The position numbers and the translations under genes were made by a program. Under the pieces are notes generated by a model, which was not told where the DNA came from, did not search any database, and saw nothing but the letters and a program-made list of their open reading frames with translations. Positions 13,542-28,151 of a stretch of 64,000 bases of DNA are shown in pieces. Source of the stretch: Verrucomicrobiia bacterium (GTDB lineage Bacteria > Verrucomicrobiota > Verrucomicrobiia > Limisphaerales > UBA11358). The DNA is taken from assembly GCA_035545995.1 (NCBI GenBank), contig DASZXH010000044.1, positions 1,527 to 65,526 on the forward strand. The letters are read 5' to 3'. Position 1 is the first letter of the stretch; every line of letters begins with the position of its first letter.

Positions 13542-13550
13542 AGATTCTTA

Positions 13551-13616: not shown

Positions 13617-13637
13617 TAAAAATCAAATCAAACAAAT

Positions 13638-13665: not shown

Positions 13666-15960
13666 TTATCCGCCAAAGTTTTTCGTTTCGTGAATTTCTT
13701 CAAACAGCGTGCCGTCGGGAATTTCGCGCGGGGTTTGTTTTTTCATGTGAACCAATCCGTGCCAGCAGAGCCATAAAAGCGGCAGCGTGCCGCCGACGAT
13801 GAACAGCGCGTCGCCGGGCAAACGCAGCCATTCAAACAACGAATTGGCGTGGCTGGAAATGAATTTCAACGACCGCGCGTCGTAATAACTGACGCTGACG
13901 GAGTGATAGAGTTGAATCAAACCGAGCGGAAACAGTGTGGCGAAAACCATCCACGCGAGGCCGAGGTTGAGCGACCAAAAACTGATTTTCGCGGCGCGGT
14001 CGCTCCACAATTTTTCGGGAATCATGTAGCGCAGACAAAAGAGCGCGAGGCCGACGGCCAGCATTCCATAAACGCCCATCATCGCGGCGTGGCCGTGATT
14101 GGCGGTGAGCGCGGTGCCGATTTCGTAATAGGAAACAATCGGCAGGTTGATGAGAAATCCGAAAATGCCCGCGCCGAGAAAGTTCCAAAAACCGACGGAC
14201 GCCAGAAACATCACCGACCAGAAATGCGGAAACGGCGTTTTCGCATTGGATTCCTGCTGCGCGCCGAGTTGGAGAAAGCTCCACGCTTCGACGGTCAGGA
14301 ACGTGAGCGGAATCACTTCCGCCGCCGAGAAAAACGCGCCCATCGCCATGTGCAACGCCGGTTCGCCGGAAAAATAAACGTGGTGCATCGTGCCGATGAC
14401 GCCGCCCGCCGAATACAAAACCACGTCGAGATAAATCAGCCGCAACGCGACGCGCTGATGGACGACGCTGAGCAGCACGAAAATGTAGGCGACCATGACC
14501 GTCGTGAACAATTCGAGAAAATCTTCGACCCACAAATGCACGACCCAAAACCGCCAGAAATCCGTCGTGGTGAAATTGGAATTGGTGTGCACGAGCAGCC
14601 CAACAGCGTAAAACGCGGGAATGGAAAGCGCGGCGAAGAAAAACAGCCACGGCATATTGCCCATGTGCTCGTCGCGCAGGCGATGGCGCAGACCGCGAAA
14701 AAGGATGACGACCCAAAACGTGAGGCCGACGGTCAGCAGGATTTGCCAGAAACGTCCCAAATCCAGAAACGTAAAACCTTGATTGCCGAACCACGACCAA
14801 CCGCGTTCAATCCAGTGAAACACGCCCGCGTATTCGCCCGCCATGCTGCCGAAAACGACGAGCGCGAGCGCGCCGAGCAGCAAATAAGACAGGACGTTTT
14901 GTCCGCGCGGTTCGCGTCCGGTGATCATCGGCGCGAGAAAAATTCCGGCGGCAAGATAAGATGTGGCCACCCAAAAAATCGCCAGTTGCAGATGCCACAT
15001 GCGCGCGAGGTTGAACGGCAAAATTTGCGCGAGGTCGAAGCCGAAGAAATTGGAAATTTCCGCGCGATAATGTTCCGCCGCGCCGCCGAACATCGTTTGC
15101 AGGAAAAACAGCAGCGCCATGACGAAGAAAAATCCTGCGCACGCGCGTTGCGCCGGCGTGAGCATGACTTGATCGGGCGGACGAAACGAAATGCGCTGTT
15201 CCTCGCGTCCGTGCCAGCCGAGAAAATTCCAGCGTCCAAACGCGGCGAACAACAGCCCGATGCCGCCGAGCAGCGCGGCGAGCGAAAGCATACTCCAGAC
15301 GACGGCTTCCGCCGTGGCGTGATTGTTCACGAGCGATTCCGGCGGCCAGTTGTTCGTGTAGGAATAATTTTTGTTTGGCCGCAGCGTCGAACCCGCCCAC
15401 GCGGACCAACTGAAAAACGCGGTGAGTTGCCGGATTTTTTCCGGGTCGGTGATAGCGTTTGGGCGCAAACCAAATTTTGTCGTGGGCGAACCAAAAAATT
15501 CGCCGTAGTAAGCGGTGAGTTTTTGAAACGCGTCGGCTTGCGCGTCGCTGTAAATCAAAACGCCGGTTGCGGCGTCGTAACGATTCGTTTTGAAATCGGC
15601 GACGGTTTTTTCATGCGCGACGTCCAAAGCGTTTCCGCCGTAAAAATCAATCGTCATTTCGGCGGCGCGATGCAAATAGCCCGCCGTGAAATCCGGGCCG
15701 AGCCACGCGCCGTGGCCGAAAATCGAGCCGTATTCCATCAACCCGTTTTGCAGAAAAACTTCCTGCCCGGCGGTGATATCCGCGCCGGTGAACAAAACTT
15801 TTCCGCTGGCGTCCGTGACTTTGGCGGGAATCGGCGGCTCGTCGGTGTAAGTGTAATACGCGAGCAGTCCCATGATGAAAAAACCGAACAGCATCACGAG
15901 CGCGACGGCTTGCAGCCAGCCTTTGGAAACGAGCAGGGTTTTATTCGGAGATTCGTTCAT
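13666..15960 (-). CDS. norZ: quinol-dependent nitric-oxide reductase (qNOR), single-subunit NorZ/NorB type
   Basis: 764 aa with an N-terminal TM helix and a periplasmic extension, followed by a 12-TM haem-copper-oxidase core ('HLWVEDFLELFTT', 'GTMHHVYFSG', 'NHGHAAMMGVYG'). Confidence 0.9.
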   Translation of the reverse strand: MNESPNKTLLVSKGWLQAVALVMLFGFFIMGLLAYYTYTDEPPIPAKVTDASGKVLFTGADITAGQEVFLQNGLMEYGSIFGHGAWLGPDFTAGYLHRAAEMTIDFYGGNALDVAHEKTVADFKTNRYDAATGVLIYSDAQADAFQKLTAYYGEFFGSPTTKFGLRPNAITDPEKIRQLTAFFSWSAWAGSTLRPNKNYSYTNNWPPESLVNNHATAEAVVWSMLSLAALLGGIGLLFAAFGRWNFLGWHGREEQRISFRPPDQVMLTPAQRACAGFFFVMALLFFLQTMFGGAAEHYRAEISNFFGFDLAQILPFNLARMWHLQLAIFWVATSYLAAGIFLAPMITGREPRGQNVLSYLLLGALALVVFGSMAGEYAGVFHWIERGWSWFGNQGFTFLDLGRFWQILLTVGLTFWVVILFRGLRHRLRDEHMGNMPWLFFFAALSIPAFYAVGLLVHTNSNFTTTDFWRFWVVHLWVEDFLELFTTVMVAYIFVLLSVVHQRVALRLIYLDVVLYSAGGVIGTMHHVYFSGEPALHMAMGAFFSAAEVIPLTFLTVEAWSFLQLGAQQESNAKTPFPHFWSVMFLASVGFWNFLGAGIFGFLINLPIVSYYEIGTALTANHGHAAMMGVYGMLAVGLALFCLRYMIPEKLWSDRAAKISFWSLNLGLAWMVFATLFPLGLIQLYHSVSVSYYDARSLKFISSHANSLFEWLRLPGDALFIVGGTLPLLWLCWHGLVHMKKQTPREIPDGTLFEEIHETKNFGG

Positions 15961-16053
15961 AATTTCTGTGGGTGAAATTTCGTTATTTTTTAGGTCAAGT
16001 TGCCGCGCTTGTCAAAACGGCAGTCAGTGTGTCGCAAAAGCGGCGGCAACTCC

Positions 16054-16067
16054 TTGACTTAAATCAA
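16054..16067. promoter_or_regulatory. FNR/Dnr-type box TTGACttaaATCAA upstream of norZ
   Basis: One mismatch to the TTGAT-N4-ATCAA consensus. It lies 94-107 bp upstream of the norZ ATG, in the 120-bp feoB-norZ spacer. Confidence 0.6.
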
Positions 16068-16080
16068 ATTCGGAAATGAA

Positions 16081-18117
16081 TTAAGCGAAGCCGAAATGTC
16101 GCAACGTTTGATAAACAATCAGCGCCGCAACGTAAGCCAGACCGCTCATGTAGGCGATTTGAAACAGCGGCCATTTCCACGAATTCGTCTCGCGGCGCAC
16201 GACAGCGGTCGTCGAAAGGCATTGCGCCGCCAGAATGTAAAACACGAGCAGGCTCGCGCACGTCGCCACGCTGAAAACGGGCGCGCCGTCCGAGCGCGTC
16301 GCGCGCCGCAGCGAATCGTAAAGCGAACCGCGATTGTTTTCCGCCGCGTCGCCGCCGACGCCATAAACAATGGCCAGCGTCGAAACAATCACTTCGCGCG
16401 CGGCGAACGAACTCACGATGCCGATGCCGATTTGCCAGTCGAAGCCAAGCGGACGGATGACCGGCTCAATGGTGCGGCCAATTTTTCCGGCGAAGGAATT
16501 TTGCAAGGAATTTTGCTGCGTCAGCCGGTCGGCGTTCGCGCGAATTTCATTTGCCTTTTGGGCGTCGCCGGATTTTTCAAGTTGCGCGGCCTGTTGCGTC
16601 ATGGCAATGGCCGGCGCGGGCGTCGCGGATTTGGGATAATACGACAGCGCCCAGAGAATCAGCGAAACGGCCAGAATGATCGTGCCCGCCTGTTTCACGA
16701 AAATTTTCGCGCGGTCGAACGTGTGCAGCAGCGCGACGCGCAGCGCGGGAATCCGGTATTGCGGCAGTTCAATCATGAGCGGTTTGCCGCCGCCGGGCAA
16801 AATCGTTTTGCGGAAAACCAGCGCGGCGACCAGCGCGGCGGCGACGCCCGTGGCGTAAGCGCCGGTAAAAATGGCGGCGGCCTTCAGCGGCGAATCGGGA
16901 AAAATCAGCGCCGTGACCATCGCATAGACCGGAATGCGCGCCGAGCACGTCAGCAGCGGCGTGATTAAAATGGTGACGAGCCGGTCGCGCGAATTTTCGA
17001 TGACGCGCGCGGACATGATGGCGGGAATCGCGCAGGCGTGCGCCGAAAGCATCGGCACGAACGCTTTTCCGGGAAGGCCAAACCGCCGCATGATTTTGTC
17101 CATCACAAACGCAGCACGCGCGAGGTAGCCGGTGTCTTCGAGCAGTGACAGCGCGAAAAACAAAATGCAAATCTGCGGCAGAAAAACAAGGATGCCGCCG
17201 ACGCCGCCGATGACGCCGTTGACCAGCAAACTTTGCAAATCGCCGGCGGAAATTTTTTCCGCGACGAATCCGCCGAGCGTGGCAAATAAATGGTCAATCA
17301 AATTCATCGGAATTTTCGCCGCCCAAAAAATCAGCGCGAACAGCGAAAGCATGACGGCCATGAAAACGGCGACACCGGCGACCGGATGCGTGAAGATTTT
17401 GTCCAATCTGTCCGTCCAAACGGAACGCCTGATGGCGCGCGCATCCAGAACGCGTGTGGAAATTTTCTCCGTCCAGTCGTAGCGCACCTGAAACGCGCAG
17501 CCGGAACAACCGGCGCAATTCAATTTGAAATTGCCAGCCGTTTCCGGCGTCGGAATTTTGGCGAGCCGCGCGATTTCATTTTTCAATTCGGAAACGCCCG
17601 AACCGTCGCGCGCGGAAATCGAAACGACGGCGCAGCCGAGTTCGTTTCGCAATTTGGGAACGTCAATCCAAATTCCGTCGCGCCGCGCCATGTCCATCAT
17701 GTTCAGCGCGACGATGACAGGACGGTTCAATTCGAGAATCTGACTGACGAGAAACAAATTGCGTTCGAGATTGGTCGCGTCCACGACGACGAGCGCGGCG
17801 TCCGGCGCAAGATTTTCCACGCCGCAACGCAAGGCGTCGCCGGCGATTTTTTCTTCCGGCGACAAACCATCCAAACTGTAAAGTCCGGGCAAATCCACGA
17901 CGACAATTTGCTCCCTGCCAATTTGAAAGCGTCCGGTTTTGCGCTCGACGGTCGTGCCGGGAAAATTCGCGGTTTTTGCGCGCAGGCCGGTGAGCGCGTT
18001 GAACAAGGTGGTTTTGCCCGCGTTGGGATTGCCGACGAGCGCGAGCATGAATTTTTTTTGCGCGCGCGATTTCGTTGGCGGTTCAATCACATTGTCGGAA
18101 TGGTGACAATTGCTCAT
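16081..18117 (-). CDS. feoB: ferrous iron transporter FeoB
   Basis: 'LVGNPNAGKTTLFNALTG' is the G1 motif of the G-domain. 'FPGTTVE' and 'DLPG' follow, and then a polytopic membrane domain. Confidence 0.9.
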   Translation of the reverse strand: MSNCHHSDNVIEPPTKSRAQKKFMLALVGNPNAGKTTLFNALTGLRAKTANFPGTTVERKTGRFQIGREQIVVVDLPGLYSLDGLSPEEKIAGDALRCGVENLAPDAALVVVDATNLERNLFLVSQILELNRPVIVALNMMDMARRDGIWIDVPKLRNELGCAVVSISARDGSGVSELKNEIARLAKIPTPETAGNFKLNCAGCSGCAFQVRYDWTEKISTRVLDARAIRRSVWTDRLDKIFTHPVAGVAVFMAVMLSLFALIFWAAKIPMNLIDHLFATLGGFVAEKISAGDLQSLLVNGVIGGVGGILVFLPQICILFFALSLLEDTGYLARAAFVMDKIMRRFGLPGKAFVPMLSAHACAIPAIMSARVIENSRDRLVTILITPLLTCSARIPVYAMVTALIFPDSPLKAAAIFTGAYATGVAAALVAALVFRKTILPGGGKPLMIELPQYRIPALRVALLHTFDRAKIFVKQAGTIILAVSLILWALSYYPKSATPAPAIAMTQQAAQLEKSGDAQKANEIRANADRLTQQNSLQNSFAGKIGRTIEPVIRPLGFDWQIGIGIVSSFAAREVIVSTLAIVYGVGGDAAENNRGSLYDSLRRATRSDGAPVFSVATCASLLVFYILAAQCLSTTAVVRRETNSWKWPLFQIAYMSGLAYVAALIVYQTLRHFGFA

Positions 18118-18124
18118 GGCGTTT

Positions 18125-18385
18125 TCAGGGTTGCGCGCAATGTTCCGGCGTGCAGATTTCGACGCGGACGCGCGCGGCCAGTTCCGCCGAGAGGCCGAGC
18201 CGCGAATTGAAAACCTTGAGAATCAGCGGATCGCCGCCGCGCACCAGTTCCACGCGGCGACCGGCGCAAACGCCGAGCGTCTTCAGCCGCTGGATTTCCT
18301 CGTCGTCCGTCGCGATGTCGCGGACGATGCCGCAAACGCGCGGCGGCAAATCGTTCAACCGGACGAATGAGCGTGTCGCTTTCAT
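18125..18385 (-). CDS. feoA: FeoA-domain protein
   Basis: 86 aa with 'LKTLGVCAGRRVELVRGGDPLILKV', an SH3-like FeoA pattern. It lies directly upstream of feoB. Confidence 0.8.
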   Translation of the reverse strand: MKATRSFVRLNDLPPRVCGIVRDIATDDEEIQRLKTLGVCAGRRVELVRGGDPLILKVFNSRLGLSAELAARVRVEICTPEHCAQP

Positions 18386-18491
18386 TTTTTAATCGAGTCT
18401 GGCAAATCGGCGGACCATCCGCTGTTGTTCGATTGCCAAAAGCCAGCCTCAAATTGCTCTGAAAATTTAACCGGTGGATTCGCCGATTTCT

Positions 18492-18505
18492 TTGATTTGA
18501 GTCAA
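18492..18505. promoter_or_regulatory. FNR/Dnr-type box TTGATttgaGTCAA in the feoA / cupin divergent region
   Basis: One mismatch to the consensus. The centre is 41.5 bp upstream of the cupin ATG (18540). CAGAAT at 18527-18532 is spaced as a -10 element for a class II promoter. Confidence 0.6.
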
Positions 18506-18539
18506 AACATTGGCGCGGCGCTTGTGTCAGAATTTCAAC

Positions 18540-18893
18540 ATGAGCGAAAAGCCCCTGATTGATTTGACGCAGGAAAAAATCCTTTCGCTGGCGGCGGAAA
18601 CGAAATTTGCCGCGAACGGAATTGTCAGCCGCACTTTGTTGCGCGCCGAAAATGCGCGCGCCGTGCTGTTCGGTTTTGCCGAGGGGCAGGAATTGACCGA
18701 GCACACTTCCACGCAACACGCGCTGATACAAATTTTGTCCGGCGAATGCGAATTTTTTCTCGCGGGCAAACCGCACGCGCTCAAGGCCGGCGATTTGCTT
18801 TACATGCCGCCGCATTTGCGCCACGCGGTAAAAGCCACGCAACCATTTTCCATGCTGCTGACGCTTTTCAAACCGGAGAATCAAAATGCCTGA
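18540..18893 (+). CDS. cupin-domain protein
   Basis: 'GQELTEHTSTQHALIQILSGECEF...GDLLYMPPHLRHAV' is a cupin_2 pattern. The start was moved from 18510 to 18540 because 18510 abuts the FNR-type box. Confidence 0.75.
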   Translation: MSEKPLIDLTQEKILSLAAETKFAANGIVSRTLLRAENARAVLFGFAEGQELTEHTSTQHALIQILSGECEFFLAGKPHALKAGDLLYMPPHLRHAVKATQPFSMLLTLFKPENQNA

Positions 18894-19407
18894 AAAAATT
18901 GTGACCCTTGACGTTCGCGAAGACATCCGCAACGGGCGCGAACCGTTCTCAAAAATCATGGCCGCCGTCGCGGAATTGCGCGCGGACGAAAACTTTTTGC
19001 TGCTCGCGCCGTTTGAACCAAAGCCACTGTTCGGCCTTTTAGCCCGGCAAGGTTTCAATCATTCGGCGCGTGAAATTGAAAACGGCGATTGGGAAATCAT
19101 TTTCGCCCGCAACGGAAACAATTTTGAATCAAACAACCACCAACATAAAGCGCCTGCGGTTGAAAAATCGGCGATCCGCAACCGGCCATCGAAAATGATT
19201 GAAGTGGATGTGCGCGGACTCGAACCGCCGCAGCCGATGGTGAAAATTCTCGAAGCGCTCACGGCGCTGCCCGATGGCGCGGAAGTCCGCGCCCGCACCG
19301 ACCGCCGCCCGATGCACCTTTACGCGCAACTCGAAGCGCGCGGCTTCACCGGCGAAACCGAGGAACAAAATGATGGCAGTTTTCTTACCCATATCCGCGC
19401 GCGTTGA
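18886..19407 (+). CDS. tandem DUF2249-domain protein
   Basis: Domain 1 ('LDVREDIRNGREPFSKIM...LLLAPFEPKPL') aligns by eye with the 27184 gene product. Domain 2 is 'VDVRGLEPPQPMVKILEAL...'. There is an 8-bp overlap with the cupin gene. Confidence 0.7.
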   Translation: MPEKIVTLDVREDIRNGREPFSKIMAAVAELRADENFLLLAPFEPKPLFGLLARQGFNHSAREIENGDWEIIFARNGNNFESNNHQHKAPAVEKSAIRNRPSKMIEVDVRGLEPPQPMVKILEALTALPDGAEVRARTDRRPMHLYAQLEARGFTGETEEQNDGSFLTHIRAR

Positions 19408-20767
19408 AGCGTTGAAACGAAATGCGTTAAAGCGGAACGCGTCTGGCAACGCTTCAACGCTTCAACCCTTCAATGTTTCAACGGCATCCATCGCCCTGCC
19501 GCTTTCGTTCATCGTCGCCGGCTTGTTCGCGCTTTTTGCCGGCGCAATCTGGCTGGTCGCGCAGCCGCAAATTCTCACGGCGTATCATTACAACGCCAGC
19601 GCCGTCGCCGCGATGCATTTGTTCGCGCTCGGCTGGCTTGGCAGCGTCGTCATAGGTGCGATGTATCAACTCGTGCCGGTCGCGCTGGAAACAAAACTAT
19701 TCAGCGAACAGCTCGCGAAAATTCAGTTCGCTTTTCACGTCGTTGGCTTCGTCGGAATGGTTTTAGCGTTTCGCGTTTGGAATATGAAATTTGTCGGCGC
19801 GTTCGGAACTGTTTTCACCATCGGCGTCGCCCTGTTCATTTACAACGTCGCGCGAACGCTGGTGCGGATTCCGAAATGGAATGTTATTGCCGCCGCCGTC
19901 GCGTCCGCGCTCGCGTGGATTTCGCTGGTGGTCGCCGCCGGACTTTTGATTGTGTCCGCGAAAACCGGCCACGCGAATTTCATGTTCCGTTTCAATCCCA
20001 TCGGCGCGATGCACGCGCACGCGCATTTGGGCGCGCTGGGATTTTTCATCATGCTCATCGTCGGCGTGTCTTACAAATTGATTCCGATGTTCACGTTGAG
20101 CGAAATTCAAAATCATCACCGCGCGCTGGCATCCGTGATTTTGCTCAATGCCGGACTCGCCGGTTCGTTCATTTCCATTTTATTGCAACTCGCGCTCAAA
20201 CCGCTGTTCGCGCTCATCATTGTCGCCGCGCTCGCGATTTATGGCTGGGAAATGATGGCGATTTTGCGCGCGCGAAAACGCCGCGCGCTGGATTGGGGCG
20301 TGAGATATTTTCTGACGGCCATTTCATTGCTCGCGCCGCTGTCAATTCTCGCGCTCGTTCTGTCGTGGCCGAAACTGCCGCTCAATCCGTTCACCGGCCA
20401 GCTTGAAAATGTTTATGGCTTCGTCGCGTTTGTCGGTGTCATTTCGTTCGCGGTCATCGGGATGCTTTACAAAATCATTCCGTTTCTCGTCTGGTTCGGA
20501 ACTTACAGCAAACACATTGGACGCGCGCAAGTGCCGGCGCTGGCGGAAATGGTTTCGGAAAAATGGCAAAGGCTCGGCTACTGGATTTTTCTCGCGGCGC
20601 TGGCCGTGACCATTTTCGGAATTTTATTTTCAAACGCGCTGGTCGCACGAATTGGTAGCGCATTTTTCGCCGCAAGCCTGGCGACGCTTGCGCTCAATGT
20701 CGGAAAAATTCTGTCGCATTGTTTTCAACCGAAACTTGCGCCGCTGGCCGCGCCAAAAAAATTATGA
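19370..20767 (+). CDS. 12-TM His-rich integral membrane protein of unknown function (possibly NnrS-like)
   Basis: About 12 hydrophobic helices. The motif G-x2-Y-[QK]-[LI]-[VI]-P occurs three times, and 'MHAHAHLG' is present. The start is uncertain: ATG 19370 overlaps the upstream gene, and TTG 19412 is an alternative. Confidence 0.5.
   Translation: MMAVFLPISARVEALKRNALKRNASGNASTLQPFNVSTASIALPLSFIVAGLFALFAGAIWLVAQPQILTAYHYNASAVAAMHLFALGWLGSVVIGAMYQLVPVALETKLFSEQLAKIQFAFHVVGFVGMVLAFRVWNMKFVGAFGTVFTIGVALFIYNVARTLVRIPKWNVIAAAVASALAWISLVVAAGLLIVSAKTGHANFMFRFNPIGAMHAHAHLGALGFFIMLIVGVSYKLIPMFTLSEIQNHHRALASVILLNAGLAGSFISILLQLALKPLFALIIVAALAIYGWEMMAILRARKRRALDWGVRYFLTAISLLAPLSILALVLSWPKLPLNPFTGQLENVYGFVAFVGVISFAVIGMLYKIIPFLVWFGTYSKHIGRAQVPALAEMVSEKWQRLGYWIFLAALAVTIFGILFSNALVARIGSAFFAASLATLALNVGKILSHCFQPKLAPLAAPKKL
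19402..19483. repeat. array of 8-mers CGTTGAAG (forward) then CTTCAACG (reverse), long imperfect hairpin
   Basis: Read directly: GTTGAAGCGTTG at 19403-19414 pairs with CAACGCTTCAAC at 19447-19458. The same 8-mer family occurs at 43244-43275. Confidence 0.6.
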
Positions 20768-21081
20768 CCGGAACAAAAATTGATGAAGCCGCCGTTCTCG
20801 AGACGCTGCGCCAAATCATTGACCCGGAAATCGGCGTCAACATCGTTGACCTCGGCTTGATTTACGGCGTGAGCATCGCGGACGGAATGGTGCGCGTGAA
20901 AATGACGCTGACCACGCCCGGTTGTCCGATGCACGACAGCATTTCGGGGGGCGTCAAAAACACGCTGCTCGAGCTTGAAGGCGTCACCGAGGCGGAAGTG
21001 GAAATTGTTTTCGAGCCGCCGTGGCATCTGTCGTTGATGAGCGAACAGGCGCGCATCGCCTTGCGCGTCGGAAATTTTTAA
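20764..21081 (+). CDS. DUF59 / MIP18-family metal-sulfur cluster assembly protein (SufT-like)
   Basis: 'IIDPEIGVNIVDLGLIY...MTLTTPGCPM' is the classic DUF59 motif. An ATGA overlap links it to the upstream gene. Confidence 0.85.
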   Translation: MTGTKIDEAAVLETLRQIIDPEIGVNIVDLGLIYGVSIADGMVRVKMTLTTPGCPMHDSISGGVKNTLLELEGVTEAEVEIVFEPPWHLSLMSEQARIALRVGNF

Positions 21082-21093
21082 CTGAAACAAAAC

Positions 21094-21399
21094 ATGAAAA
21101 ACACCAACCAAAATCAAATTCCCGCCGACAAAATCATGGACGTTCGTCCGATTCCGTGTTCCATCAAACACGGCCAGATCATCCAAAAATGGCTCGACCT
21201 CGCCGTCGGCGATTATTTCGTGCTGCTCAACGACCACGACCCGGTGCCATTGTATTATCAATTCGCCGCCGAATGGCCGCAGGCGTTTTCGTGGGAGCAT
21301 CTGGTCAAAGGACCGGACGAATTCCGCGTTAAAATCACCAAACTGAAATCCGGCGCGGAAAATGCCAAAACAGAAACCGCGTGTTGCGGCAGCCATTGA
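21094..21399 (+). CDS. DUF2249-domain protein
   Basis: 'DVRPIP...HGQIIQKWLDL..GDYFVLLNDHDPVPLYYQF...FSWEHL..GPDEFRVKITK' is the canonical DUF2249 pattern as recalled. Confidence 0.75.
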   Translation: MKNTNQNQIPADKIMDVRPIPCSIKHGQIIQKWLDLAVGDYFVLLNDHDPVPLYYQFAAEWPQAFSWEHLVKGPDEFRVKITKLKSGAENAKTETACCGSH

Positions 21400-21400
21400 A

Positions 21401-22210
21401 ATGAAAATGGCGGCGACCACTTCCGAGACTGTTTCCACGCGCAAAATCATCAAATTGATTTTGCCGAAAGAACACGGAAGCTGGTCGCTCGCGCTGGAGC
21501 CGGTTGCACTCGGATTGCTGACCGCGCCGACGGCGGCGGGCGGCGCGCTGGCCGTCGCCGCATTCGCGGGATTTTTCCTGCGGCGACCGCTGAAAATTTT
21601 TTTCCGCGAGGAAAATCGCGAACGATGGAAAACGGCGCGCGCCGCAATCTTTATTCTGGCAACCATTGCCATCGCCGGTTTGCTGTTGGCTATAAAATTT
21701 GGCGGCGCGAAAAATCTTTGGCCGCTGATTCCGGCGGCCGTTGCCGGAATGGCATTCGCGTTTTTCGATTTGCGCAATGAAGCGCGTGAAGGCGCGGCGG
21801 AAATTTCCGGCGCCATCACCTTTGGAATTTTGCCGGCCGCCTTTGCGACATTGGCCGGATGGAACTTTGTCGCGGCAATTTCTCTCGCGGCGGTGATGCT
21901 CGCGCGCTCCGTGCCGACGGTTTTATTCCTGCGAACGTATTTGCGAATCAAAAAAGGCAAAGGCGTAAAAATTTTTCCGGCGATTTTCGCGGCCATAATT
22001 GGATTTCTTCTCATCGTCTGGCTGGCCATTTCAAAATTTGCACCGTGGATTTCCGTCGTTTTTGTCCTGCTGATGGCCGCGCGAACAATTTATTTGCTCG
22101 CCAGCCGTCCGCGTTTCGCCGCCAAAACTCTCGGCATCACGGAAACAACTTTTGGCGCGACGATGGTTTTGACTTTGGCCGTTGCGTGGAGATTTTTTCA
22201 GCAACAATAG
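21401..22210 (+). CDS. YwiC-like membrane protein
   Basis: 'LPKEHGSWSLALEPVALGLL' starts a polytopic protein of about 270 aa. The start was set at ATG 21401, 2 nt after the upstream stop. Confidence 0.6.
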   Translation: MKMAATTSETVSTRKIIKLILPKEHGSWSLALEPVALGLLTAPTAAGGALAVAAFAGFFLRRPLKIFFREENRERWKTARAAIFILATIAIAGLLLAIKFGGAKNLWPLIPAAVAGMAFAFFDLRNEAREGAAEISGAITFGILPAAFATLAGWNFVAAISLAAVMLARSVPTVLFLRTYLRIKKGKGVKIFPAIFAAIIGFLLIVWLAISKFAPWISVVFVLLMAARTIYLLASRPRFAAKTLGITETTFGATMVLTLAVAWRFFQQQ

Positions 22211-22235
22211 GGCGCGTAAATTAGAAGAAATACTT

Positions 22236-22250
22236 AATCATTTAATGATT
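22236..22250. promoter_or_regulatory. 7-1-7 palindrome AATCATT-T-AATGATT upstream of the nirK-operon FNR-type box
   Basis: Read directly. It lies 19 bp upstream of the box and its function is unknown. Confidence 0.3.
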
Positions 22251-22268
22251 GATTAAAAGTTTAACTTA

Positions 22269-22282
22269 TTGACTTGGGTCAA
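22269..22282. promoter_or_regulatory. FNR/Dnr-type box TTGACttggGTCAA upstream of the DGC-porin-nirK operon
   Basis: A perfect palindrome with 2 mismatches to TTGAT-N4-ATCAA. GATAAT at 22305-22310 is spaced 22 bp from the box, as in class II promoters. Confidence 0.6.
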
Positions 22283-22314
22283 GTCTTCCTTCCGGTAGTC
22301 GTCCGATAATTCTA

Positions 22315-22333
22315 CTGCAATTAAAAATTGCAG
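22315..22333. promoter_or_regulatory. hairpin/palindrome CTGCAATT-AAA-AATTGCAG abutting the start codon at 22336
   Basis: Perfect 8-bp arms, read directly. It would occupy the whole predicted short 5' leader. Confidence 0.35.
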
Positions 22334-22335
22334 TT

Positions 22336-22770
22336 ATGAACAACGAAATTCTGCCATCGGACAAAACGGGAAAATCCAAGCCGTTGTCGGAAAAACCCGC
22401 CGTGGTTTATGCCTGCTCCGGCTGCTCGGACGCGGGCGAAATCGCCGACCGCGTCGCGCGGCAACTCACGCGCGAAGGCGCGGCACAAATGTCCTGCCTC
22501 GCCGGAATCGGCGGGCGCGTGAAAAGTTTGGTGATGAAAGCCGAAAACGCCGGACGCATTTTGGTTGTGGACGGCTGTCCGCTGAATTGCGCGGCGCACA
22601 CGCTTCGGCTCGCGGGGTTTCAACATTTCGAGCATCTCGAATTGCACAAAATCGGCATCCGCAAAGGCTCGTGCCCGGCGACGGATGAAAAAATTTCCGC
22701 CGGTGTCGCGGCGGCCAAAGAAATTCTTTCACGCCATCAAACCATCAATGAAATCTGTCCTGAAATATGA
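22336..22770 (+). CDS. DGC-domain putative zinc-binding protein
   Basis: 'VVYACSGCSDAGEIADR' and 'LVVDGCPLNCA' give the DGC motif plus four Cys. Confidence 0.7.
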   Translation: MNNEILPSDKTGKSKPLSEKPAVVYACSGCSDAGEIADRVARQLTREGAAQMSCLAGIGGRVKSLVMKAENAGRILVVDGCPLNCAAHTLRLAGFQHFEHLELHKIGIRKGSCPATDEKISAGVAAAKEILSRHQTINEICPEI

Positions 22771-24188
22771 AAAATAATTGCAACCGTAAAAAAGTTCTTG
22801 CCGGCGCGCTCGCGTTAAGCGCCGCTGCCGCGTTGGCGCAACAAAAACCATTCATACAGGCGGGCACGGCGCAGCCGCCGACGTTGCCGCCGCTGCAAAC
22901 GACGAACGCGCCCGCCGTTGCAATGGGCGCGAACACCAATGCGCCGTCGTTCAGCAATTTGTCCGACAAATTTTTCAACGGCGAAATTCCCGACGCCATC
23001 GCTAAAGGAAAATTTAATTTTGATGCGCGGCTCCATTACGAGCAGGCGGATGAAGAAGGCGTTTCCGGCGTCACCAAAAATTCCTACGCGCCGACGTTGC
23101 GCACGATGTTCGGTTACACGACCGCGCCGCTTTACGGATTTCAGGGGATGCTCGAAGGTTTGAACGTCACGGCGTTCGGCGGGCAAAATAATTACAACGC
23201 CGCCGGTTCAAACGGCCAAGGCAGCCGTCCAGTTGTGGCCGACCCACCGTTGACGCGACTCGACCAGGCATGGTTGAGCTGGAATTACACGAATTATTTT
23301 TCCATCAAGGGCGGGGAACAACGCATCAATCTGGACAATCAACGTTTCATCGGCGATTCCAATTGGCGTCAGAACATTCAGACGTTTGATGCCGTCAGCC
23401 TCGGCGGCGAGCCGGTTGCCGGACTGGATTTGTATTACGCCTACGTTTGGGACGTTCATCGCGTTTTCGGAAACGTGAGCGGATTGCCCGCAGCGAACAC
23501 GGATTTTGATTCGCGCTCGCATTTGATCAACGTCTCGTATTCCGGCTGGAAATACGGCACGTTCACCGGCTACGACTATTTGCTCGACTTGCGCAATTTG
23601 GCCGGCGACGCCAATTCCTGCGAAACATTCGGCGGCGCTTTCGCCGGCAACGCGCCCGTCACCGATAAAATCGCCGCCGATTATCGCGCGGAATTCGCGT
23701 ATCAAAAAAATTGGGCCGGCAGCCCGTTGCGCTACGACGCGACGTATTACAATCTCGAGGGTGGCTTGAACCTCAAACCGGTCGCGTTCGGCGGCGGCTA
23801 CGAAGTTCTCGGCAGCGGCGCAAATTCCGGCGCGGGCGGCGGACGCGCGTCATTTCGCACGCCGCTGGCCACGCTTCACGCGTTCAACGGCTGGGACGAT
23901 GTTTTTCTGACGACGCCCGCGAACGGACTCGACGATTTATACGGCTACCTTCAAGTCACTTTGCCCGCGCAAATTCCCGTGCGGTTTGTGTTTCACAAAT
24001 TCGACGCCGATTTCGGCAACGGCGATTACGGCAACGAGTTTGACATCATGGCGTCCAAAAAATTCGGCAAGCACTGGAGCGCGCTGGTCAAATACGCCTA
24101 TTTTCAGGGACAAGACGCGGCCTCGCCGTCCATCGCCAGCAATGTGGACATCCAAAAATTCTGGGCGCAGGTGGAATTTACTTTTTGA
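22767..24188 (+). CDS. outer-membrane beta-barrel porin (alginate-export-like)
   Basis: It has a signal peptide 'ALALSAAAALA', alternating amphipathic strands and a C-terminal '...WAQVEFTF'. An ATGA overlap links it to the DGC gene. Confidence 0.6.
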   Translation: MKNNCNRKKVLAGALALSAAAALAQQKPFIQAGTAQPPTLPPLQTTNAPAVAMGANTNAPSFSNLSDKFFNGEIPDAIAKGKFNFDARLHYEQADEEGVSGVTKNSYAPTLRTMFGYTTAPLYGFQGMLEGLNVTAFGGQNNYNAAGSNGQGSRPVVADPPLTRLDQAWLSWNYTNYFSIKGGEQRINLDNQRFIGDSNWRQNIQTFDAVSLGGEPVAGLDLYYAYVWDVHRVFGNVSGLPAANTDFDSRSHLINVSYSGWKYGTFTGYDYLLDLRNLAGDANSCETFGGAFAGNAPVTDKIAADYRAEFAYQKNWAGSPLRYDATYYNLEGGLNLKPVAFGGGYEVLGSGANSGAGGGRASFRTPLATLHAFNGWDDVFLTTPANGLDDLYGYLQVTLPAQIPVRFVFHKFDADFGNGDYGNEFDIMASKKFGKHWSALVKYAYFQGQDAASPSIASNVDIQKFWAQVEFTF

Positions 24189-24217
24189 ACCGGCAAAAAA
24201 TTGAACCGAAAAATTAT

Positions 24218-25720
24218 ATGAAAACGAATGTTCTGAAAATCAGCTTCGCAAGCCTTCTGTTGACGGTTGCGGCGATTTGTCCTTCAAAATCGGAAACGCA
24301 AGCCGCCGCAATTCCTGAAATTATTGGCAGCGAAAACGCCGTTTTGACCGACGCGCCAAACGTGCCGCCGCCCATCACGCGCACATACGCGACGAAAGTC
24401 ATTGTGAATCTCGAAGTCAAGGAAGTCACCCGGCGGCTCGCCGACGGCGTGGATTACACGTTTTGGACGTTTGGCGGCAGCGTGCCGGGAAAATTCATCC
24501 GCATCCGCGAAGGCGACGAAGTGGAATTTCATCTGGCCAACGCGCCCGACAGCAAAATGCCGCACAACATTGATTTGCACGCTGTCAGCGGGCCGGGTGG
24601 CGGCGCGGCGGCGTCATTTGTCGCACCGGGACACGAATCGCAATTTACTTTCACGGCGCTGAATCCGGGACTTTACGTTTATCACTGCGCGACCGCGCCG
24701 GTCGGAATGCACATCGCTAACGGAATGTATGGCTTGATTCTCGTCGAACCGGCCAACGGCCTGCCGAAAGTGGACAAGGAATTTTACATCGTGCAAGGCG
24801 AGTTTTACACCGCCGGAAAATTCGGCGATCCCGGCTTGCAACCGTTCGACTTGGACAAGGCGGTTGACGAGCGTCCGGCTTACGTCGTTTTCAACGGCGC
24901 GGTCGGTTCGCTCACGGACAGCAACGCGCTCACGGCGCGCGTCGGCGAAAAAATCCGTTTCTTCGTCGGCAACGGCGGACCGAATCTCGTCAGCTCATTT
25001 CACGTCATCGGAAATATTTTCGACACGGTTTATGACGAAGGCGGGACGACGCCGATCCACAACGTGCAAACGACGTTGATTCCGGCGGGCGGCGCGGCGA
25101 TGGTGGAATTCACGCCGAAAGTTCCCGGCACTTACACTTTTCTCGACCATTCCATTTTGCGCGCGTTCAACAAAGGTTGCATCGGGCAATTGAAAGTGAC
25201 CGGCGACGCGAACGGCGCGATTTTTTCCGGCAGGCAAAGCGACACCATTTTTACCGAACCGGAAACCAATTCTGTTCCGGCGGTCAAAGTTGAGCCGGTG
25301 GCCGCGAAGCCGGCGAAAAATTCCCAATCCGTTCCGGCAAACGCAACTCCAGCCGTTGCAGCGCAAATGGAATCGGGTAGACAAGTTTATCAACAAATTT
25401 GTTTCGTTTGCCATCAACCGAACGGCCTCGGCGTGCCGAATCAAATCCCGCCGCTGGCCGGCTCGGATTTTCTCGCGCATGAAAAAGTGGAATTGATCCG
25501 CACGTTGATTCAAGGACGTTCCGGCGAAATCGTCGTCAACGGGAAAAAATTCAGCGGCATCATGGTTCCGCAGGCCGATTTGACCGACGAGCAAATCGCC
25601 AACGTGCTGACGTTTGTGCGCAACAACTGGAACAATTCCGGCGACGCGGTGACGGCGGACGAAGTCCGCGCCGCGCGCGCCGGAGCGAAGCCCGTGGCCG
25701 CCGCAAATTCGTTTGAATGA
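24218..25720 (+). CDS. nirK: copper-containing nitrite reductase NirK with C-terminal cytochrome c domain
   Basis: 'HNIDLHAVSGPGGG' carries T2Cu/T1Cu His ligands. 'YVYHCATAPVGMHIANGM' gives T1Cu Cys-His-Met. The C-terminal 'CFVCHQPNG' is a CxxCH after a Pro/Ala linker. Confidence 0.9.
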   Translation: MKTNVLKISFASLLLTVAAICPSKSETQAAAIPEIIGSENAVLTDAPNVPPPITRTYATKVIVNLEVKEVTRRLADGVDYTFWTFGGSVPGKFIRIREGDEVEFHLANAPDSKMPHNIDLHAVSGPGGGAAASFVAPGHESQFTFTALNPGLYVYHCATAPVGMHIANGMYGLILVEPANGLPKVDKEFYIVQGEFYTAGKFGDPGLQPFDLDKAVDERPAYVVFNGAVGSLTDSNALTARVGEKIRFFVGNGGPNLVSSFHVIGNIFDTVYDEGGTTPIHNVQTTLIPAGGAAMVEFTPKVPGTYTFLDHSILRAFNKGCIGQLKVTGDANGAIFSGRQSDTIFTEPETNSVPAVKVEPVAAKPAKNSQSVPANATPAVAAQMESGRQVYQQICFVCHQPNGLGVPNQIPPLAGSDFLAHEKVELIRTLIQGRSGEIVVNGKKFSGIMVPQADLTDEQIANVLTFVRNNWNNSGDAVTADEVRAARAGAKPVAAANSFE

Positions 25721-25729
25721 AATCCGATT

Positions 25730-26563
25730 ATGAATTTTAACGCAAAAACGCAAAGACGCGACGGTGCCAGGATTGGGGAAATTTTCCTTTGCTGCGTCCT
25801 CGCCTCTTTGCGTTTTTGCGTTGATTCTTCCGCCGCCACCAACGCGAGCATCGCGCCCGCTGGCATGGTTCAAATTCCCGCCGGCGTTTATCGTCCGCTG
25901 CTTAAATCCAAAACCGACGCGGCGGAAATTGCCGTGAAAAGTTTTTATCTGGATGTCGAGCCGGTTTCCAACGGCGAATTTTTGGAATTCGTCCGCGCCC
26001 ATCCGCAATGGCAACGCTCAAACGTCGCGCGCCTTTTCGCCGACAAATCGTATTTGAAAAATTGGGCGGGTGATTTGGAGCCGGGGAAAAATGCGCCGTC
26101 GAACGCACCGGTCACATTCGTTTCCTGGTTCGCGGCGAAAGCCTACGCGCAATGGAAACACGAACGGCTGCCGACCATCGCCGAATGGGAACTCGCGGCA
26201 AATGCCAGCGCGACGCGCGCCGACGGCGAAAATGACCCGCAATTCAAGGCGGAAATCCTGAAGTGGTATTGCGAATCGTCCGCGACGGAATTTCTGCCGG
26301 TCGGCGTCGGCGGGAAAAATTTTTACGGCGTCCGCGATTTGCACGGCCTGGTTTGGGAATGGACCGCCGATTTCAATTCCGCAATTTTATCCGGCGATTC
26401 GCGCGATGACGGCGCCGACGCGAAATTGTTTTGCGGCGCGGGCGCGCAAAGCGCGCGCGCCGTGGACGATTATCCGGCGTTCATGCGATTTGCTTTTCGC
26501 AGTAGTCTCAAGGCGGATTATTGCATCCACAATTTGGGCTTTCGCTGCGCCAAAGATTTATGA
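25730..26563 (+). CDS. nirV: formylglycine-generating-enzyme (SUMF1) family protein, NirV-like
   Basis: The motifs are 'FYLDVEPVSNGEFLEFV', 'RLPTIAEWELAA', 'GLVWEWTADF' and 'NLGFRCAKD'. The start is ambiguous between 25730 (through the REP hairpin) and ATG 25865. Confidence 0.75.
   Translation: MNFNAKTQRRDGARIGEIFLCCVLASLRFCVDSSAATNASIAPAGMVQIPAGVYRPLLKSKTDAAEIAVKSFYLDVEPVSNGEFLEFVRAHPQWQRSNVARLFADKSYLKNWAGDLEPGKNAPSNAPVTFVSWFAAKAYAQWKHERLPTIAEWELAANASATRADGENDPQFKAEILKWYCESSATEFLPVGVGGKNFYGVRDLHGLVWEWTADFNSAILSGDSRDDGADAKLFCGAGAQSARAVDDYPAFMRFAFRSSLKADYCIHNLGFRCAKDL
25739..25822. repeat. REP-like hairpin: 22-bp arms AACGCAAAAACGCAAAGACGCG / CGCCTCTTTGCGTTTTTGCGTT
   Basis: Read directly: arms at 25739-25760 and 25801-25822 with 1 mismatch and a 40-nt loop. 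It sits between the nirK stop and the FGE domain. Confidence 0.8.
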
Positions 26564-27174
26564 AAACAAAACTCCCAACCGCCATCGTGGCCGCGCTCGT
26601 TTTCCAACTTGGAATTTCGGGCGCGACAGAAACCAATTTCATTCATCGCCCGTGCTGCGCGATGGATTTGCCCGCGAAAAAATTCACCGACAAATCGCTT
26701 TATCAAGTCGAATCGGTTTGGACGACGGACGCGCAAAAACAAATCAAGCTGGGCGCGCTCGCGGGAAAACCGCAGGTCGTTTTGATGTTTTACTCGCGCT
26801 GCACGACGGCCTGCCCGATTTTGGAAAATGAATTGCGACAAATTGAATCCGCGCTGACGTCGGAAACACGCGCGAAAACCGGTTTTACCTTGATTTCATT
26901 CGACAGCGAGCGCGACACACCGACGGCGCTCGCCGAATATCGCAAAGTTTGGAATTTGCCGGAAAATTGGACGCTGCTTTCCGGCCAGCCGGACGACGTT
27001 TTGGAATTGGCCGCGTTGCTCGGAATTCAATTCAAGAAATCCGGCGATGGCGAAATCGCGCACTCAAACGTCGTCACGCTTTTGAACGCGCAAGGCGAAA
27101 TTGTTTTTCAGCAAACCGGATTGAACGCTGGCGCAGATGAAATGGTTCGCCGGATTGAACAAATTGTGAAATGA
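26560..27174 (+). CDS. SCO1/SenC-family copper chaperone
   Basis: It has a signal peptide, 'VLMFYSRCTTACP' (CxxxC) and the downstream 'IAHSNVV'. An ATGA overlap links it to nirV. Confidence 0.85.
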   Translation: MKTKLPTAIVAALVFQLGISGATETNFIHRPCCAMDLPAKKFTDKSLYQVESVWTTDAQKQIKLGALAGKPQVVLMFYSRCTTACPILENELRQIESALTSETRAKTGFTLISFDSERDTPTALAEYRKVWNLPENWTLLSGQPDDVLELAALLGIQFKKSGDGEIAHSNVVTLLNAQGEIVFQQTGLNAGADEMVRRIEQIVK

Positions 27175-27183
27175 TCAATCGTT

Positions 27184-27438
27184 ATGCCGCCGCTGAGCCA
27201 GTTCAAACGCTTTGACGTTCGCGATTTGATTCGTCGCGGCATTGAGCCGTTTCCCGAAATCCGCCGGCGCGTGGACGCGCTCAAGCCGGACGAAGGATTG
27301 ATTGTCGTCGCGCCGTTTTTGCCGTCGCCGCTCGTGGAAATTTTGAGCAGCGAGGGATTTTCATCGAAAGTGGAACGCGGCGGCGGCGCGGACTGGCTGG
27401 TTTATTTTTGGCGCGAAACTGATTTGATCTCATCATGA
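27184..27438 (+). CDS. DUF2249-domain protein
   Basis: 'FDVRDLIRRGIEPFPEIRRRVDALKPDEGLIVVAPFLPSPL' parallels domain 1 of the 18886 gene. An ATGA overlap links it to the regulator gene. Confidence 0.7.
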   Translation: MPPLSQFKRFDVRDLIRRGIEPFPEIRRRVDALKPDEGLIVVAPFLPSPLVEILSSEGFSSKVERGGGADWLVYFWRETDLISS

Positions 27439-28151
27439 GCGCTGTCACGGATTACAAAACGATTGCGCTGATCAACACGTTGCGCAGTTGCCAGCTTTTC
27501 ACGGGCCTGCCGCAATCGGATTTGGAAAAAATCGCGGACGTGACGGTTTTGAAATCGCTGGAAAAGGACGATTATCTCTTTCACGAAGGCGATCCGGCGC
27601 ACGGCTTTTATGTCGTTCAACGCGGCGCGGTGAACGTGCATCGCGTCAGTGCCACGGGCAAGGAGCAGGTCATTCACGTTTTTCGCGCGGGCGACTCGTT
27701 TGCGGAGGTCGCGCTGGCTTCCGAACGCGGTTATCCCGCCGATGCGCGCGCCATCGAACCGACGCAGGTTTTGCTCGTGCAAAAGGGCGGCATTTTGGAA
27801 TTGCTCAAGTGCCAGCCGGAACTGGCGCTGCGGATGCTCGGCTCGATGAGCAGCCATTTGCGCGTGCTGGTCGGGCAGCTTGAAGATTTGACGTTGAAGG
27901 ACGTCGAAACACGGCTGGCGAACTGGCTGGTGAAGCGCTGCGCCAATCCGCAAGGCGAAACGCCGGCGAAAATCGAGTTGACCCTGACCAAGCGGATGCT
28001 CGCGGCGGAATTGGGCACGGTAAGCGAAACGTTTTCGCGGACGCTGGCGAAATTCCGCGCGCAAAAACTGATCGCCGTTAAAGGCAAAACCATCACCGTC
28101 CTGTCGCCCGCAAAATTGAGCGCGCTGTTGCGGCGCAATTTGGGGGAATGA
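27435..28151 (+). CDS. Crp/Fnr-family transcriptional regulator, Dnr/NnrR-like (no Fe-S Cys cluster)
   Basis: It has a cNMP-binding-like fold ('LFHEGDPAHGFYVVQRGAV') and a C-terminal HTH 'LAAELGTVSETFSRTLAKF' with the E--SR recognition motif. It lacks the N-terminal Cys cluster of FNR. Confidence 0.85.
   Translation: MSAVTDYKTIALINTLRSCQLFTGLPQSDLEKIADVTVLKSLEKDDYLFHEGDPAHGFYVVQRGAVNVHRVSATGKEQVIHVFRAGDSFAEVALASERGYPADARAIEPTQVLLVQKGGILELLKCQPELALRMLGSMSSHLRVLVGQLEDLTLKDVETRLANWLVKRCANPQGETPAKIELTLTKRMLAAELGTVSETFSRTLAKFRAQKLIAVKGKTITVLSPAKLSALLRRNLGE

Follow-up and report, generated by a model that had tools for sequence, protein, structure and literature searches.

The 64,000 nt stretch considered here (the window: positions 1,527 to 65,526 of contig DASZXH010000044.1, assembly GCA_035545995.1) carries at positions 13666-28151 a cluster of genes for nitrite and nitric oxide (NO) metabolism, and the whole is best explained, with good though not full confidence, as a regulon by which a Verrucomicrobiae (subdivision 3) bacterium reduces nitrite and NO and which it carries on its chromosome. 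A first-pass annotation of the window had proposed a regulon of this sort, and the proposal is strengthened by phylogenetic footprinting of the regulator-type boxes in relatives, by the DNR-like character of the regulator encoded at the right end of the cluster and by synteny.

In the scheme we favour the DNR-type activator (27435-28151) would bind three TTGAY-N4-RTCAA boxes as class II sites, the signal being probably NO and/or low oxygen, and would switch on the quinol-dependent nitric oxide reductase (qNOR), a core operon running cupin-DUF2249x2-HCOH-DUF59-DUF2249-YwiC as a leaderless mRNA, probably the divergent feoAB genes too, and the DGC-porin-NirK-NirV-SCO1-DUF2249-regulator operon, the last of these amounting to positive autoregulation. 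Nitrite would enter across the outer membrane via the porin of that operon, whose substrate is presumed, and be reduced to NO by the periplasmic cytochrome c-fused NirK, and the NO would then be reduced to nitrous oxide (N2O) with quinol by qNOR. SCO1 and NirV would serve NirK copper maturation, and FeoAB with the DUF59 protein would supply or repair iron centres. The HCOH, DUF2249 and cupin proteins would be the ancestral core of the regulon, most likely for NO protection or NO/N-oxide signalling, with HCOH a heme-binding membrane protein analogous to NnrS and the DUF2249 proteins DrpA/DrpB-like modulators of a Crp-family regulator.

Enzymes, regulator type and box all belong to known kinds, and a cytochrome-fused NirK has been reported before in Verrucomicrobia. 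What seems new or under-appreciated is the HCOH/DUF2249 operon as the constant target and the pairing of a DUF2249 gene with the regulator, together with a main promoter predicted to be leaderless and class II, a conserved four-cysteine partner of qNOR and a porin, apparently of nitrate/nitrite type, that has been recruited to the cluster.

Gene content and conservation among relatives

Genes were called from an open reading frame (ORF) map with Pfam and NCBIfam scans of the window proteins, and all genes named in the first-pass annotation were found at the positions it gave. The packing it had described is also there, with ATGA overlaps at 20764, 22767, 26560 and 27435 and an 8-nt overlap at 18886, and just three intergenic gaps of size, adding up to about 370 nt, lie inside 13666-28151. 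Pfam scans of the other large ORFs in the window bear out that no nar, nap or nos gene is among them; these ORFs encode glycosidases, oxidoreductases, RecA, RuvB, H+-PPase and similar proteins.

Relatives of the cluster were collected by scanning an alignment of the HCOH protein against 185,579 species genomes, which returned 277 relatives; counts below use the best 80 of the 277, almost all of them Limisphaerales, Pedosphaera or other Verrucomicrobia subdivision 3 metagenome-assembled genomes (MAGs), onto which the window proteins were mapped by tblastn. The neighbourhood proves to be conserved across subdivision 3, and the prospect that no relative would share it can be dropped. HCOH is present in 80/80 loci by construction, the DUF59 gene in 75, the tandem DUF2249 gene in 72, the second DUF2249 gene in 58 and the cupin gene in 47. 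The regulator follows with 41, a third DUF2249 gene (DUF2249c) with 33, the NirK-NirV-SCO1 block with 22, the DGC gene with 16, qNOR with 7 and YwiC with 5. The regulator and the core operon co-occur in 22 of the 35 full-length loci. The constant core is thus the DUF2249/HCOH operon, counted in 80/80 loci and usually accompanied by the DUF2249-regulator pair, and NirK-NirV-SCO1 and qNOR are optional.

The closest relative (GCA_035546095.1, loci L001/L004) has cluster proteins 63-96% identical to those of the window, mostly 86-96%, and among the 80 loci FeoAB and the porin are found in this relative alone. The RuvB/H+-PPase right flank is common to both genomes and the left flank differs. Another relative (L002/L006) keeps the core operon, qNOR and the regulator together with DGC and DUF2249 and yet lacks NirK, and because of this and of the optional occurrence of the other modules the cluster reads as a mosaic, an NO-type core to which different lineages have added qNOR, the block for nitrite reduction, a porin and iron uptake. 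The description of the cluster as one self-standing unit therefore needs qualifying: tight packing, three shared boxes and a matching regulator are all there, but FeoAB and the porin are lineage-specific and NirK and qNOR optional in a mosaic assembly. The L002/L006 cluster also holds MarR, ClC channel and YgbA_NO genes. In several MAGs the DUF2249/HCOH/DUF59 operon is present two or three times over, each copy on a contig of its own (L014/L019/L050; L013/L076; L030/L034; L056/L058; L071/L082).

Boxes, promoters and the regulator

Three exact TTGAY-N4-RTCAA boxes, as noted in the first-pass annotation, occupy the three sizeable intergenic gaps. An FNR/DNR-type box TTGACTTAAATCAA lies upstream of qNOR (16054-16067), a second, TTGATTTGAGTCAA, in the divergent gap between feoA and the cupin gene (18492-18505), and a third, TTGACTTGGGTCAA, upstream of the operon that runs from DGC to the regulator (22269-22282). 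The whole window has four matches to the motif against 0.6 expected, and 0/100 shuffles reach four. The fourth match (40253-40266, TTGAT-N4-ATCAA) is inside an HTH/DUF433 ORF (39775-40467, minus strand) in a stretch of low GC, and as a regulon site it was set aside as probably due to chance. Across the 83 loci fetched, 186 exact boxes occur in 1.33 Mb, or 0.14/kb, about 15x the roughly 0.009/kb due to chance as estimated from shuffles of the window and applied to the relatives. These boxes stand upstream of the cupin gene (50), the tandem DUF2249 gene (32), DGC (20), NirK (12) and qNOR (8), and at fixed distances before the cupin/DUF2249 operon, DGC, NirK and qNOR; those before qNOR were seen in L006, L007, L011, L020, L071 and L072.

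The spacing is tightest at the cupin gene, where 37 of 46 loci have the centre of the box exactly 41.5 nt before the ATG, as does the window (ATG 18540). The cupin promoter would on this evidence have class II Crp/Fnr geometry and, because a 41.5-nt box spacing puts the transcription start on the cupin start codon, a leaderless mRNA is predicted. A -10-like hexamer CAGAAT (18528-18533, plus strand) with a TG at 18525-18526 occupies -12 to -7, counted from the A of the ATG, and the cupin promoters of 37 relatives, when aligned, share a G at -14, an A at -11 and a T at -7, with CATG spanning -1 to +3, giving a -10 consensus nAnnnT. A fixed -41.5 spacing to a start codon makes leaderless transcription a precise prediction and a cheap one. 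The cupin protein most likely starts at ATG 18540, with 18510 as the alternative. A literature search on leaderless transcription in Verrucomicrobia, and on Pedosphaera nirK, found nothing specific to either.

At the other promoters a spacing of 22 nt between box and hexamer recurs, on the qNOR, DGC and feoA sides alike. CACACT, -10-like, is 22 nt on from the qNOR box on the minus strand; TAAATT (the reverse complement of 18464-18469) is 22 nt from the box at 18492 on the minus strand, toward feoA; and GATAAT (22305-22310) is 22 nt downstream of the box at 22269, where it predicts a leader of about 19 nt. An 8-bp hairpin or palindrome, CTGCAATT-aaa-AATTGCAG (22316-22334, plus strand), ends 1 nt before the DGC start codon; its pairing is kept in the closest relative by G-U-compatible changes, and further relatives show small hairpins of their own at this place. 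A terminator scan of the window was uninformative.

In several relatives a second FNR-type box is found inside the 3' end of the cupin gene (L006 9421, L007 8335, L008 522, L011 9409, L012 8375, L020 6275, L062 9329), 41-43 nt before the start codon of the tandem DUF2249 gene, where it would make an internal and probably leaderless promoter. The window has no such box.

The regulator gene (27435-28151, plus strand) encodes a Crp/Fnr-family protein with a cNMP-like sensor domain and a Crp-type HTH (PF00027 and PF13545). Its best PDB match is the Pseudomonas aeruginosa DNR structure 3DKW, at 102.6 bits over residues 16-228, with FNR and NtcA at 66-69 bits, and its best NCBIfam match is FtrB, under the cutoff. 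The recognition helix has the E--SR pattern (VSETFSRT in the translation). The N-terminal [4Fe-4S] Cys cluster of FNR is absent, a single Cys (C19) being found in the first 30 residues. The protein thus appears to be of an ordinary DNR-like type, and since its gene is the last of the DGC operon it is probably autoregulated. Directly before it, and overlapping it by 4 nt (ATGA), is the gene for the single-domain DUF2249 protein DUF2249c (27184-27438, plus strand, Pfam), and a DUF2249 gene adjoins 29 of the 41 related regulator copies.

The whole arrangement resembles the NO-responsive DNR/NnrR-type regulons, such as that of P. aeruginosa DNR, in the protein family, in a TTGAT-N4-ATCAA-type box at a class II position before nir and nor genes and in the autoregulatory layout. 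It differs from these regulons in the pairing of the regulator with an overlapping DUF2249 gene, in having as its most constant target the HCOH/DUF2249 operon and not nir/nor, and in a main promoter that is predicted to be leaderless. That the best conserved target of an NO-type regulator should be an operon (HCOH/DUF2249/cupin/DUF59) with no assigned function is perhaps the chief interest of the cluster.

The core operon

The first gene of the core operon (18540-18893, plus strand) encodes a Cupin_2 protein (Pfam) and is the one predicted to be leaderless. It is followed on the same strand by genes for a tandem DUF2249 protein, of a TusA-like fold family (18886-19407, Pfam), for the HCOH-type, COX1-like membrane protein of 464 aa and 12 transmembrane helices (12-TM) (19373-20767), for a SufT-like DUF59/FeS_assembly_P protein (20764-21081; TIGR02945 at 111 bits, under the equivalog cutoff), for a single-domain, DrpA-like DUF2249 protein (21094-21399, Pfam) and for a YwiC-like membrane protein (21401-22210 or from 21362, its start being uncertain; Pfam). 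For the COX1-like protein the most likely start is ATG 19373, not the alternative 19274, because the N-terminus M-x-V-x-L-P-I-S that this start gives is conserved among homologues. On the other side of the divergent gap feoA (18125-18385) and feoB (16081-18117), the latter for a ferrous iron transporter, are both on the minus strand (Pfam).

The HCOH protein has no dedicated Pfam or NCBIfam model; it matches PF00115 weakly (39 bits over one third of its length), and ccoN likewise. More than 1400 homologues were found, those with a source name being from Verrucomicrobia. Its AlphaFold2 (AF2) model (pLDDT 84, pTM 0.84) has 12 long transmembrane helices, and Foldseek returned only heme-copper oxidase (HCO) subunit I (aa3), CcoN/cbb3 and NorB, with a query-normalised TM-score mostly of 0.6-0.7 and 9-15% identity. 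Besides one near the C-terminus, the invariant histidines in the alignment are H59, H69, H109, H201, H203 and H205, of which the last three form an H-A-H-A-H run in TM6. The predicted TM7 and TM10 hold no conserved His. The protein thus lacks the canonical CuB/FeB and helix X sites, and with them the six-His set of an HCO, which has a His in helix II and in helix VI, an HH in helix VII and an HxH in helix X. A threefold internal repeat, G-x-[MS]-Y-[QK]-[LI]-[VI]-P, is found in TM2, TM6 and TM10, the copies in TM2 and TM6 alone having an equivalent His, and in hhalign comparisons the TM6 H-A-H aligns weakly with the H-G-H heme ligands of qNOR helix X. Pfam scanning with the NnrS family model PF05940 gave no match to the protein at E<=0.01. 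YwiC was considered as a further HCO homologue and rejected, since hhalign shows no relation to the HCOH protein.

The HCOH family, reportedly described by Pei and colleagues in 2014, is said to comprise HCO-related 12-TM proteins built of three 4-TM units with a reduced His set, and to include NnrS as its best-known member. The window protein agrees with this description in its fold, its threefold repeat and its DUF2249 neighbours, which occur in 80/80 loci. Pei et al. (Protein Sci 23:1220) are cited as linking DUF2249 to the HCO superfamily (PMC11218638), and in Haloferax the DUF2249 genes beside nirK and nor are induced under denitrifying conditions (PMC11218638). In Vibrio cholerae nnrS belongs to the NO-responsive NorR regulon, a regulon critical for NO resistance (PMC3345576). 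The protein is like the HCOH/NnrS proteins in combining a 12-TM HCO fold that lacks the full catalytic His set with DUF2249 neighbours and a denitrification or NO context, and unlike NnrS in having no NnrS Pfam match and six invariant His that include the TM6 H-A-H-A-H run. Proteins of this family often bear the name cbb3-type cytochrome c oxidase subunit I in public records (homologues P0006, P0030, P0114), a mislabelling that could wrongly credit MAGs with extra high-affinity oxidases.

For the DUF2249 proteins the nearest known system is that of Thermus thermophilus, in which DrpA is a single DUF2249 domain and DrpB a DUF1858 domain with two tandem DUF2249 domains (PMC6282519). Both are expressed in nitrate respiration under the Crp-family activator DnrT and act back on promoters that depend on DnrS/DnrT (PMC6282519). 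In the window, too, DUF2249 proteins, a tandem one and two single ones, stand under a Dnr-type box, the likeness being one of domain content, and its tandem protein corresponds to the two C-terminal domains of DrpB. The differences are that no DUF1858 is present, a cupin preceding instead, and that the linkage is to nirK, qNOR and HCOH rather than to nar. A PDB sequence search with the tandem DUF2249 protein gave no meaningful match. Because DUF2249 proteins are induced or regulatory in Thermus and haloarchaeal denitrification too, they may represent a widespread missing component of N-oxide metabolism.

The best reading of HCOH would be a membrane heme protein with soluble partners, acting in NO protection or signalling, and the DUF59 (Fe-S) and FeoAB (Fe2+) functions would fit with repair of NO-damaged iron centres. 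A bolder view, which we put forward tentatively and think more likely wrong than right, has the core (cupin, DUF2249 proteins, six-His HCO-fold protein and DUF59) forming a membrane heme(-metal) system that acts on or senses NO or NO-derived species, with the DUF2249 partners as sensors gating the DNR-type regulator and, separately, the small four-Cys protein next to qNOR as a domesticated C-terminal transposase domain of IS1182 type, now an unrecognised accessory subunit of that enzyme.

The NirK operon

NirK (24218-25720, alternative start 24185, plus strand) is a three-domain protein of two cupredoxin domains and a C-terminal class I cytochrome c. It scores 353.2 bits with TIGR02376, for which the equivalog cutoff is 296.3, and matches the structures of the Ralstonia pickettii enzyme (RpNiR, 3ZIY; 600 bits) and the Pseudoalteromonas haloplanktis nitrite reductase (2ZOO; 577 bits) end to end, so that cupredoxin core, linker and cytochrome c are all covered. 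The motifs PHNIDLH, YHCATAPVGMHIANGM, SSFHVIG and DHSI are identical in the alignment to RpNiR, and to them we assign, on the established understanding of NirK, the type 1 copper ligands (His, Cys, His, Met), the three His of the type 2 copper and the catalytic Asp and His. The cytochrome c (PF00034 and PF13442, residues 393-482) has a CFVCH aligned to the CSVCH of RpNiR. The protein thus seems an ordinary, close homologue of the cytochrome-fused R. pickettii enzyme, like RpNiR and 2ZOO in its three-domain build, its copper-ligand motifs and its CxxCH, and as an enzyme without material difference from them; what is unlike them is its setting, an operon in which genes for a DGC protein and a porin come before it. 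C-terminal heme extensions of verrucomicrobial NirK have already been described, and nirK-nirV pairing is frequent (PMC4770552).

Downstream are the genes for a NirV-like protein of the FGE-sulfatase fold (25730-26563, plus strand, Pfam) and for a SCO1/SenC copper chaperone (26560-27174, plus strand; PF02630 at 57 bits), the latter with a thioredoxin-like domain and CTTAC as its CxxxC motif. An FGE-sulfatase-fold gene directly downstream of nirK is also a feature of the known nirK-nirV operons (Rhodobacter sphaeroides; survey in PMC4770552), unlike which SCO1/SenC and DUF2249 genes follow here. The NirV-like gene follows NirK in 21 of the 22 NirK-bearing relatives and the NirK-NirV-SCO1 block is kept in 21-22 of them, and because the trio is conserved as a block a role of SCO1 and the NirV-like protein in maturation of the NirK copper centres would fit.

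The operon begins with a Cys-rich DGC-domain protein (22336-22770, plus strand, Pfam) of unassigned function, for which a PDB sequence search gave no meaningful match. Next comes an outer-membrane barrel of the Alginate-export family (22767-24188, plus strand), with a weak PF13372 match, a signal peptide and a C-terminal Phe; PF13372 is found in many of its homologues. Outside the two sister genomes its closest homologues, at 71-75% identity, are in nitrate/nitrite assimilation clusters (L088 5001-6521; L089 5001-6416) that hold FocA/NirC-type and NrtA/B-type transporters, a molybdopterin reductase and an NIR_SIR nitrite reductase. Because of these neighbours the porin would seem to be a nitrate/nitrite-selective outer-membrane channel recruited to feed NirK, and their existence suggests that Verrucomicrobia may have a family of such channels. 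Members of Verrucomicrobia subdivision 3 abound in soils and peat, and with NirK and qNOR but no linked nosZ they would be sources of N2O.

qNOR and its four-Cys partner

The qNOR/NorZ gene (13666-15960, minus strand) encodes a single polypeptide of 764 aa with PF22085 at residues 45-207 (176 bits) and PF00115 at residues 276-717 (171 bits). It aligns over its full length to the Geobacillus, Alcaligenes and Neisseria qNOR structures, scoring 542 bits with Geobacillus stearothermophilus 3AYF and 525 bits with the A. xylosoxidans enzyme. The six heme/FeB His ligands and the conserved Glu are present, HLQLAIFW, HLWVED, MHHVY and HGHAAMMG aligning with 3AYF, and no CxxCH occurs in the sequence, the N-terminal NorC-like domain being heme-less. 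By these features it is apparently an ordinary enzyme of known kind, like 3AYF, 6QQ5 (A. xylosoxidans) and 6FWF (Neisseria meningitidis) in having a heme-less cytochrome-c-like N-terminal domain, a NorB core and all the metal-ligand motifs. In L002/L006 (3956-6037) qNOR is split into three consecutive ORFs of 190, 181 and 344 aa, through either pseudogene formation or assembly frameshifts.

What sets the clade apart from these systems is that its qNOR gene is followed by one for a conserved four-Cys, three-helix membrane protein, for which we know of no counterpart in the characterised qNOR systems. In the window this gene is the ORF at 13002-13541 (minus strand), for a protein of about 174 aa whose likely start is the conserved Met at 13526, and the cluster functionally reaches left to 13002, beyond the border at 13666 drawn in the first-pass annotation. 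The protein begins with a helix and ends with two, and the domain between them has four Cys that are invariant in the alignment (C-x26-C-x2-C-x5-C); AF2 gave a poor model for the 179-aa ORF (pLDDT 59.5). Its family counts 914 homologues which, among the matches listed, are 66-100% identical and nearly all 173-193 aa long. The gene is downstream of qNOR on the same strand in six of the seven qNOR-bearing loci, and in L084-L087, the neighbourhoods of which are otherwise unrelated, the ORF (6001-6525) overlaps the qNOR end by 4 nt.

Residues 37-119 of the ORF product match positions 345-426 of a 488-position IS1182 transposase model, weakly and in its C-terminal part (as does DDE_Tnp_1_6). A dead IS1182 transposase, or scar of an island, was considered and rejected: the catalytic part is lacking, the length is uniform at 173-193 aa and the gene is linked to qNOR. 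Because of the 4-nt overlap with the qNOR end in relatives, the protein is instead proposed as a candidate accessory protein of qNOR whose origin would lie in a transposase domain, and might thereby be a new accessory subunit. In the window a spacer of 124 nt separates the two genes in place of the 4-nt overlap of the relatives, and it is filled by an imperfect palindrome (13548-13620) with 36-nt arms, 75% complementary, and repeated CGCAGAT/ATCTGCG units, perhaps a terminator or else a small repeat element that has inserted there.

Alternative explanations

Several points weigh against a nitrite and NO regulon run by the adjacent regulator. The cupin gene, first of the core operon, was undetected by tblastn in the closest relative (L001/L004). 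A generic sigma-70 scan finds two promoter-like sites against seven expected, neither of them at the boxes, and the -10 elements are weak, the box standing in place of a -35. Boxes occur also in loci that have no adjacent regulator, where another FNR-type protein could use them, and the ligand of the regulator is not readable from its sequence. Thermus DrpA has been reported to be a periplasmic nitrate sensor, which does not map simply onto the cytoplasmic-looking DUF2249 proteins of the window. A truncated denitrification pathway is unproven from a 64-kb window alone; nar, nap or nos could sit elsewhere in the genome, so the terms self-contained and truncated, which the first-pass annotation had used, go beyond what the window can show.

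The most serious competitor, which we nevertheless hold to be rather improbable, is pure nitrosative-stress defence, in which qNOR, HCOH, DUF59 and FeoAB would detoxify NO and repair its damage and NirK would clear toxic nitrite without meaningful energy conservation. It would account for most related loci lacking the NirK block and yet retaining the HCOH operon and the regulator, and for the YgbA_NO family (in Pfam, nitrous oxide-stimulated promoter) and the ClC and MarR genes near relatives' clusters; that nar, nap and nos are missing from the window, the rest of which resembles an aerobic saccharolytic heterotroph, speaks for it as well. However, production of NO by NirK is the opposite of detoxification, the NirK maturation genes and the recruited porin in the same operon suggest that nitrite is wanted as a substrate, and the fused cytochrome c ties NirK to the respiratory chain. 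Defence and respiration are in any case not mutually exclusive. Less probable again would be that the boxes are used by another, oxygen-sensing FNR-type regulator encoded elsewhere and that the adjacent Crp/Fnr protein has a different role. FNR and DNR boxes are indistinguishable by sequence, and boxes precede the core operon even where no regulator is found within 10 kb (e.g. L013, L017), yet the adjacent regulator keeps company with the operon in most of the full-length loci, has a box before its own gene, either directly or by way of DGC, and has an E--SR helix that reads TTGAT half-sites. FNR/DNR cross-talk at the same boxes is moreover normal in known denitrifiers, which tells against having to choose a second regulator in place of the first.

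The word island, as the first-pass annotation used it, holds for a gene cluster but not for a mobile element, and horizontal acquisition of a mobile genomic island with a transposase remnant at its left end is the explanation that we think highly improbable. The IS1182-like ORF, a cluster GC slightly higher than its surroundings (0.55-0.58 vs 0.50-0.54), a left flank unlike that of the closest relative, and FeoAB and the porin as lineage-specific insertions could all be taken as its marks. The supposed transposase, however, is the conserved qNOR-coupled protein found in many genomes without a catalytic part, the RuvB/PPase right flank is conserved and the core operon is found throughout the clade. 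Scans for tRNA genes and Rfam elements found nothing in or beside the cluster, no integrase flanks it and no direct repeats were seen, and because tRNA, integrase and Rfam elements are missing from its borders mobility is poorly supported. The chromosomal regulon for nitrite and NO reduction is the explanation preferred over all three.

Neighbouring genes

To the left of the cluster a carbamoyl-phosphate synthase large-subunit ORF (11384-12889, minus strand) ends after about 500 aa and so comprises the N-terminal half only; it overlaps an ORF6N-domain gene (10801-11424, minus strand), and carB is here either split or shortened. To the right GC falls to 0.46-0.48 at 36000-41000, a stretch with a sigma-70-like/anti-sigma ORF, a PfkB kinase and the HTH/DUF433 ORF, which may be a foreign insert.

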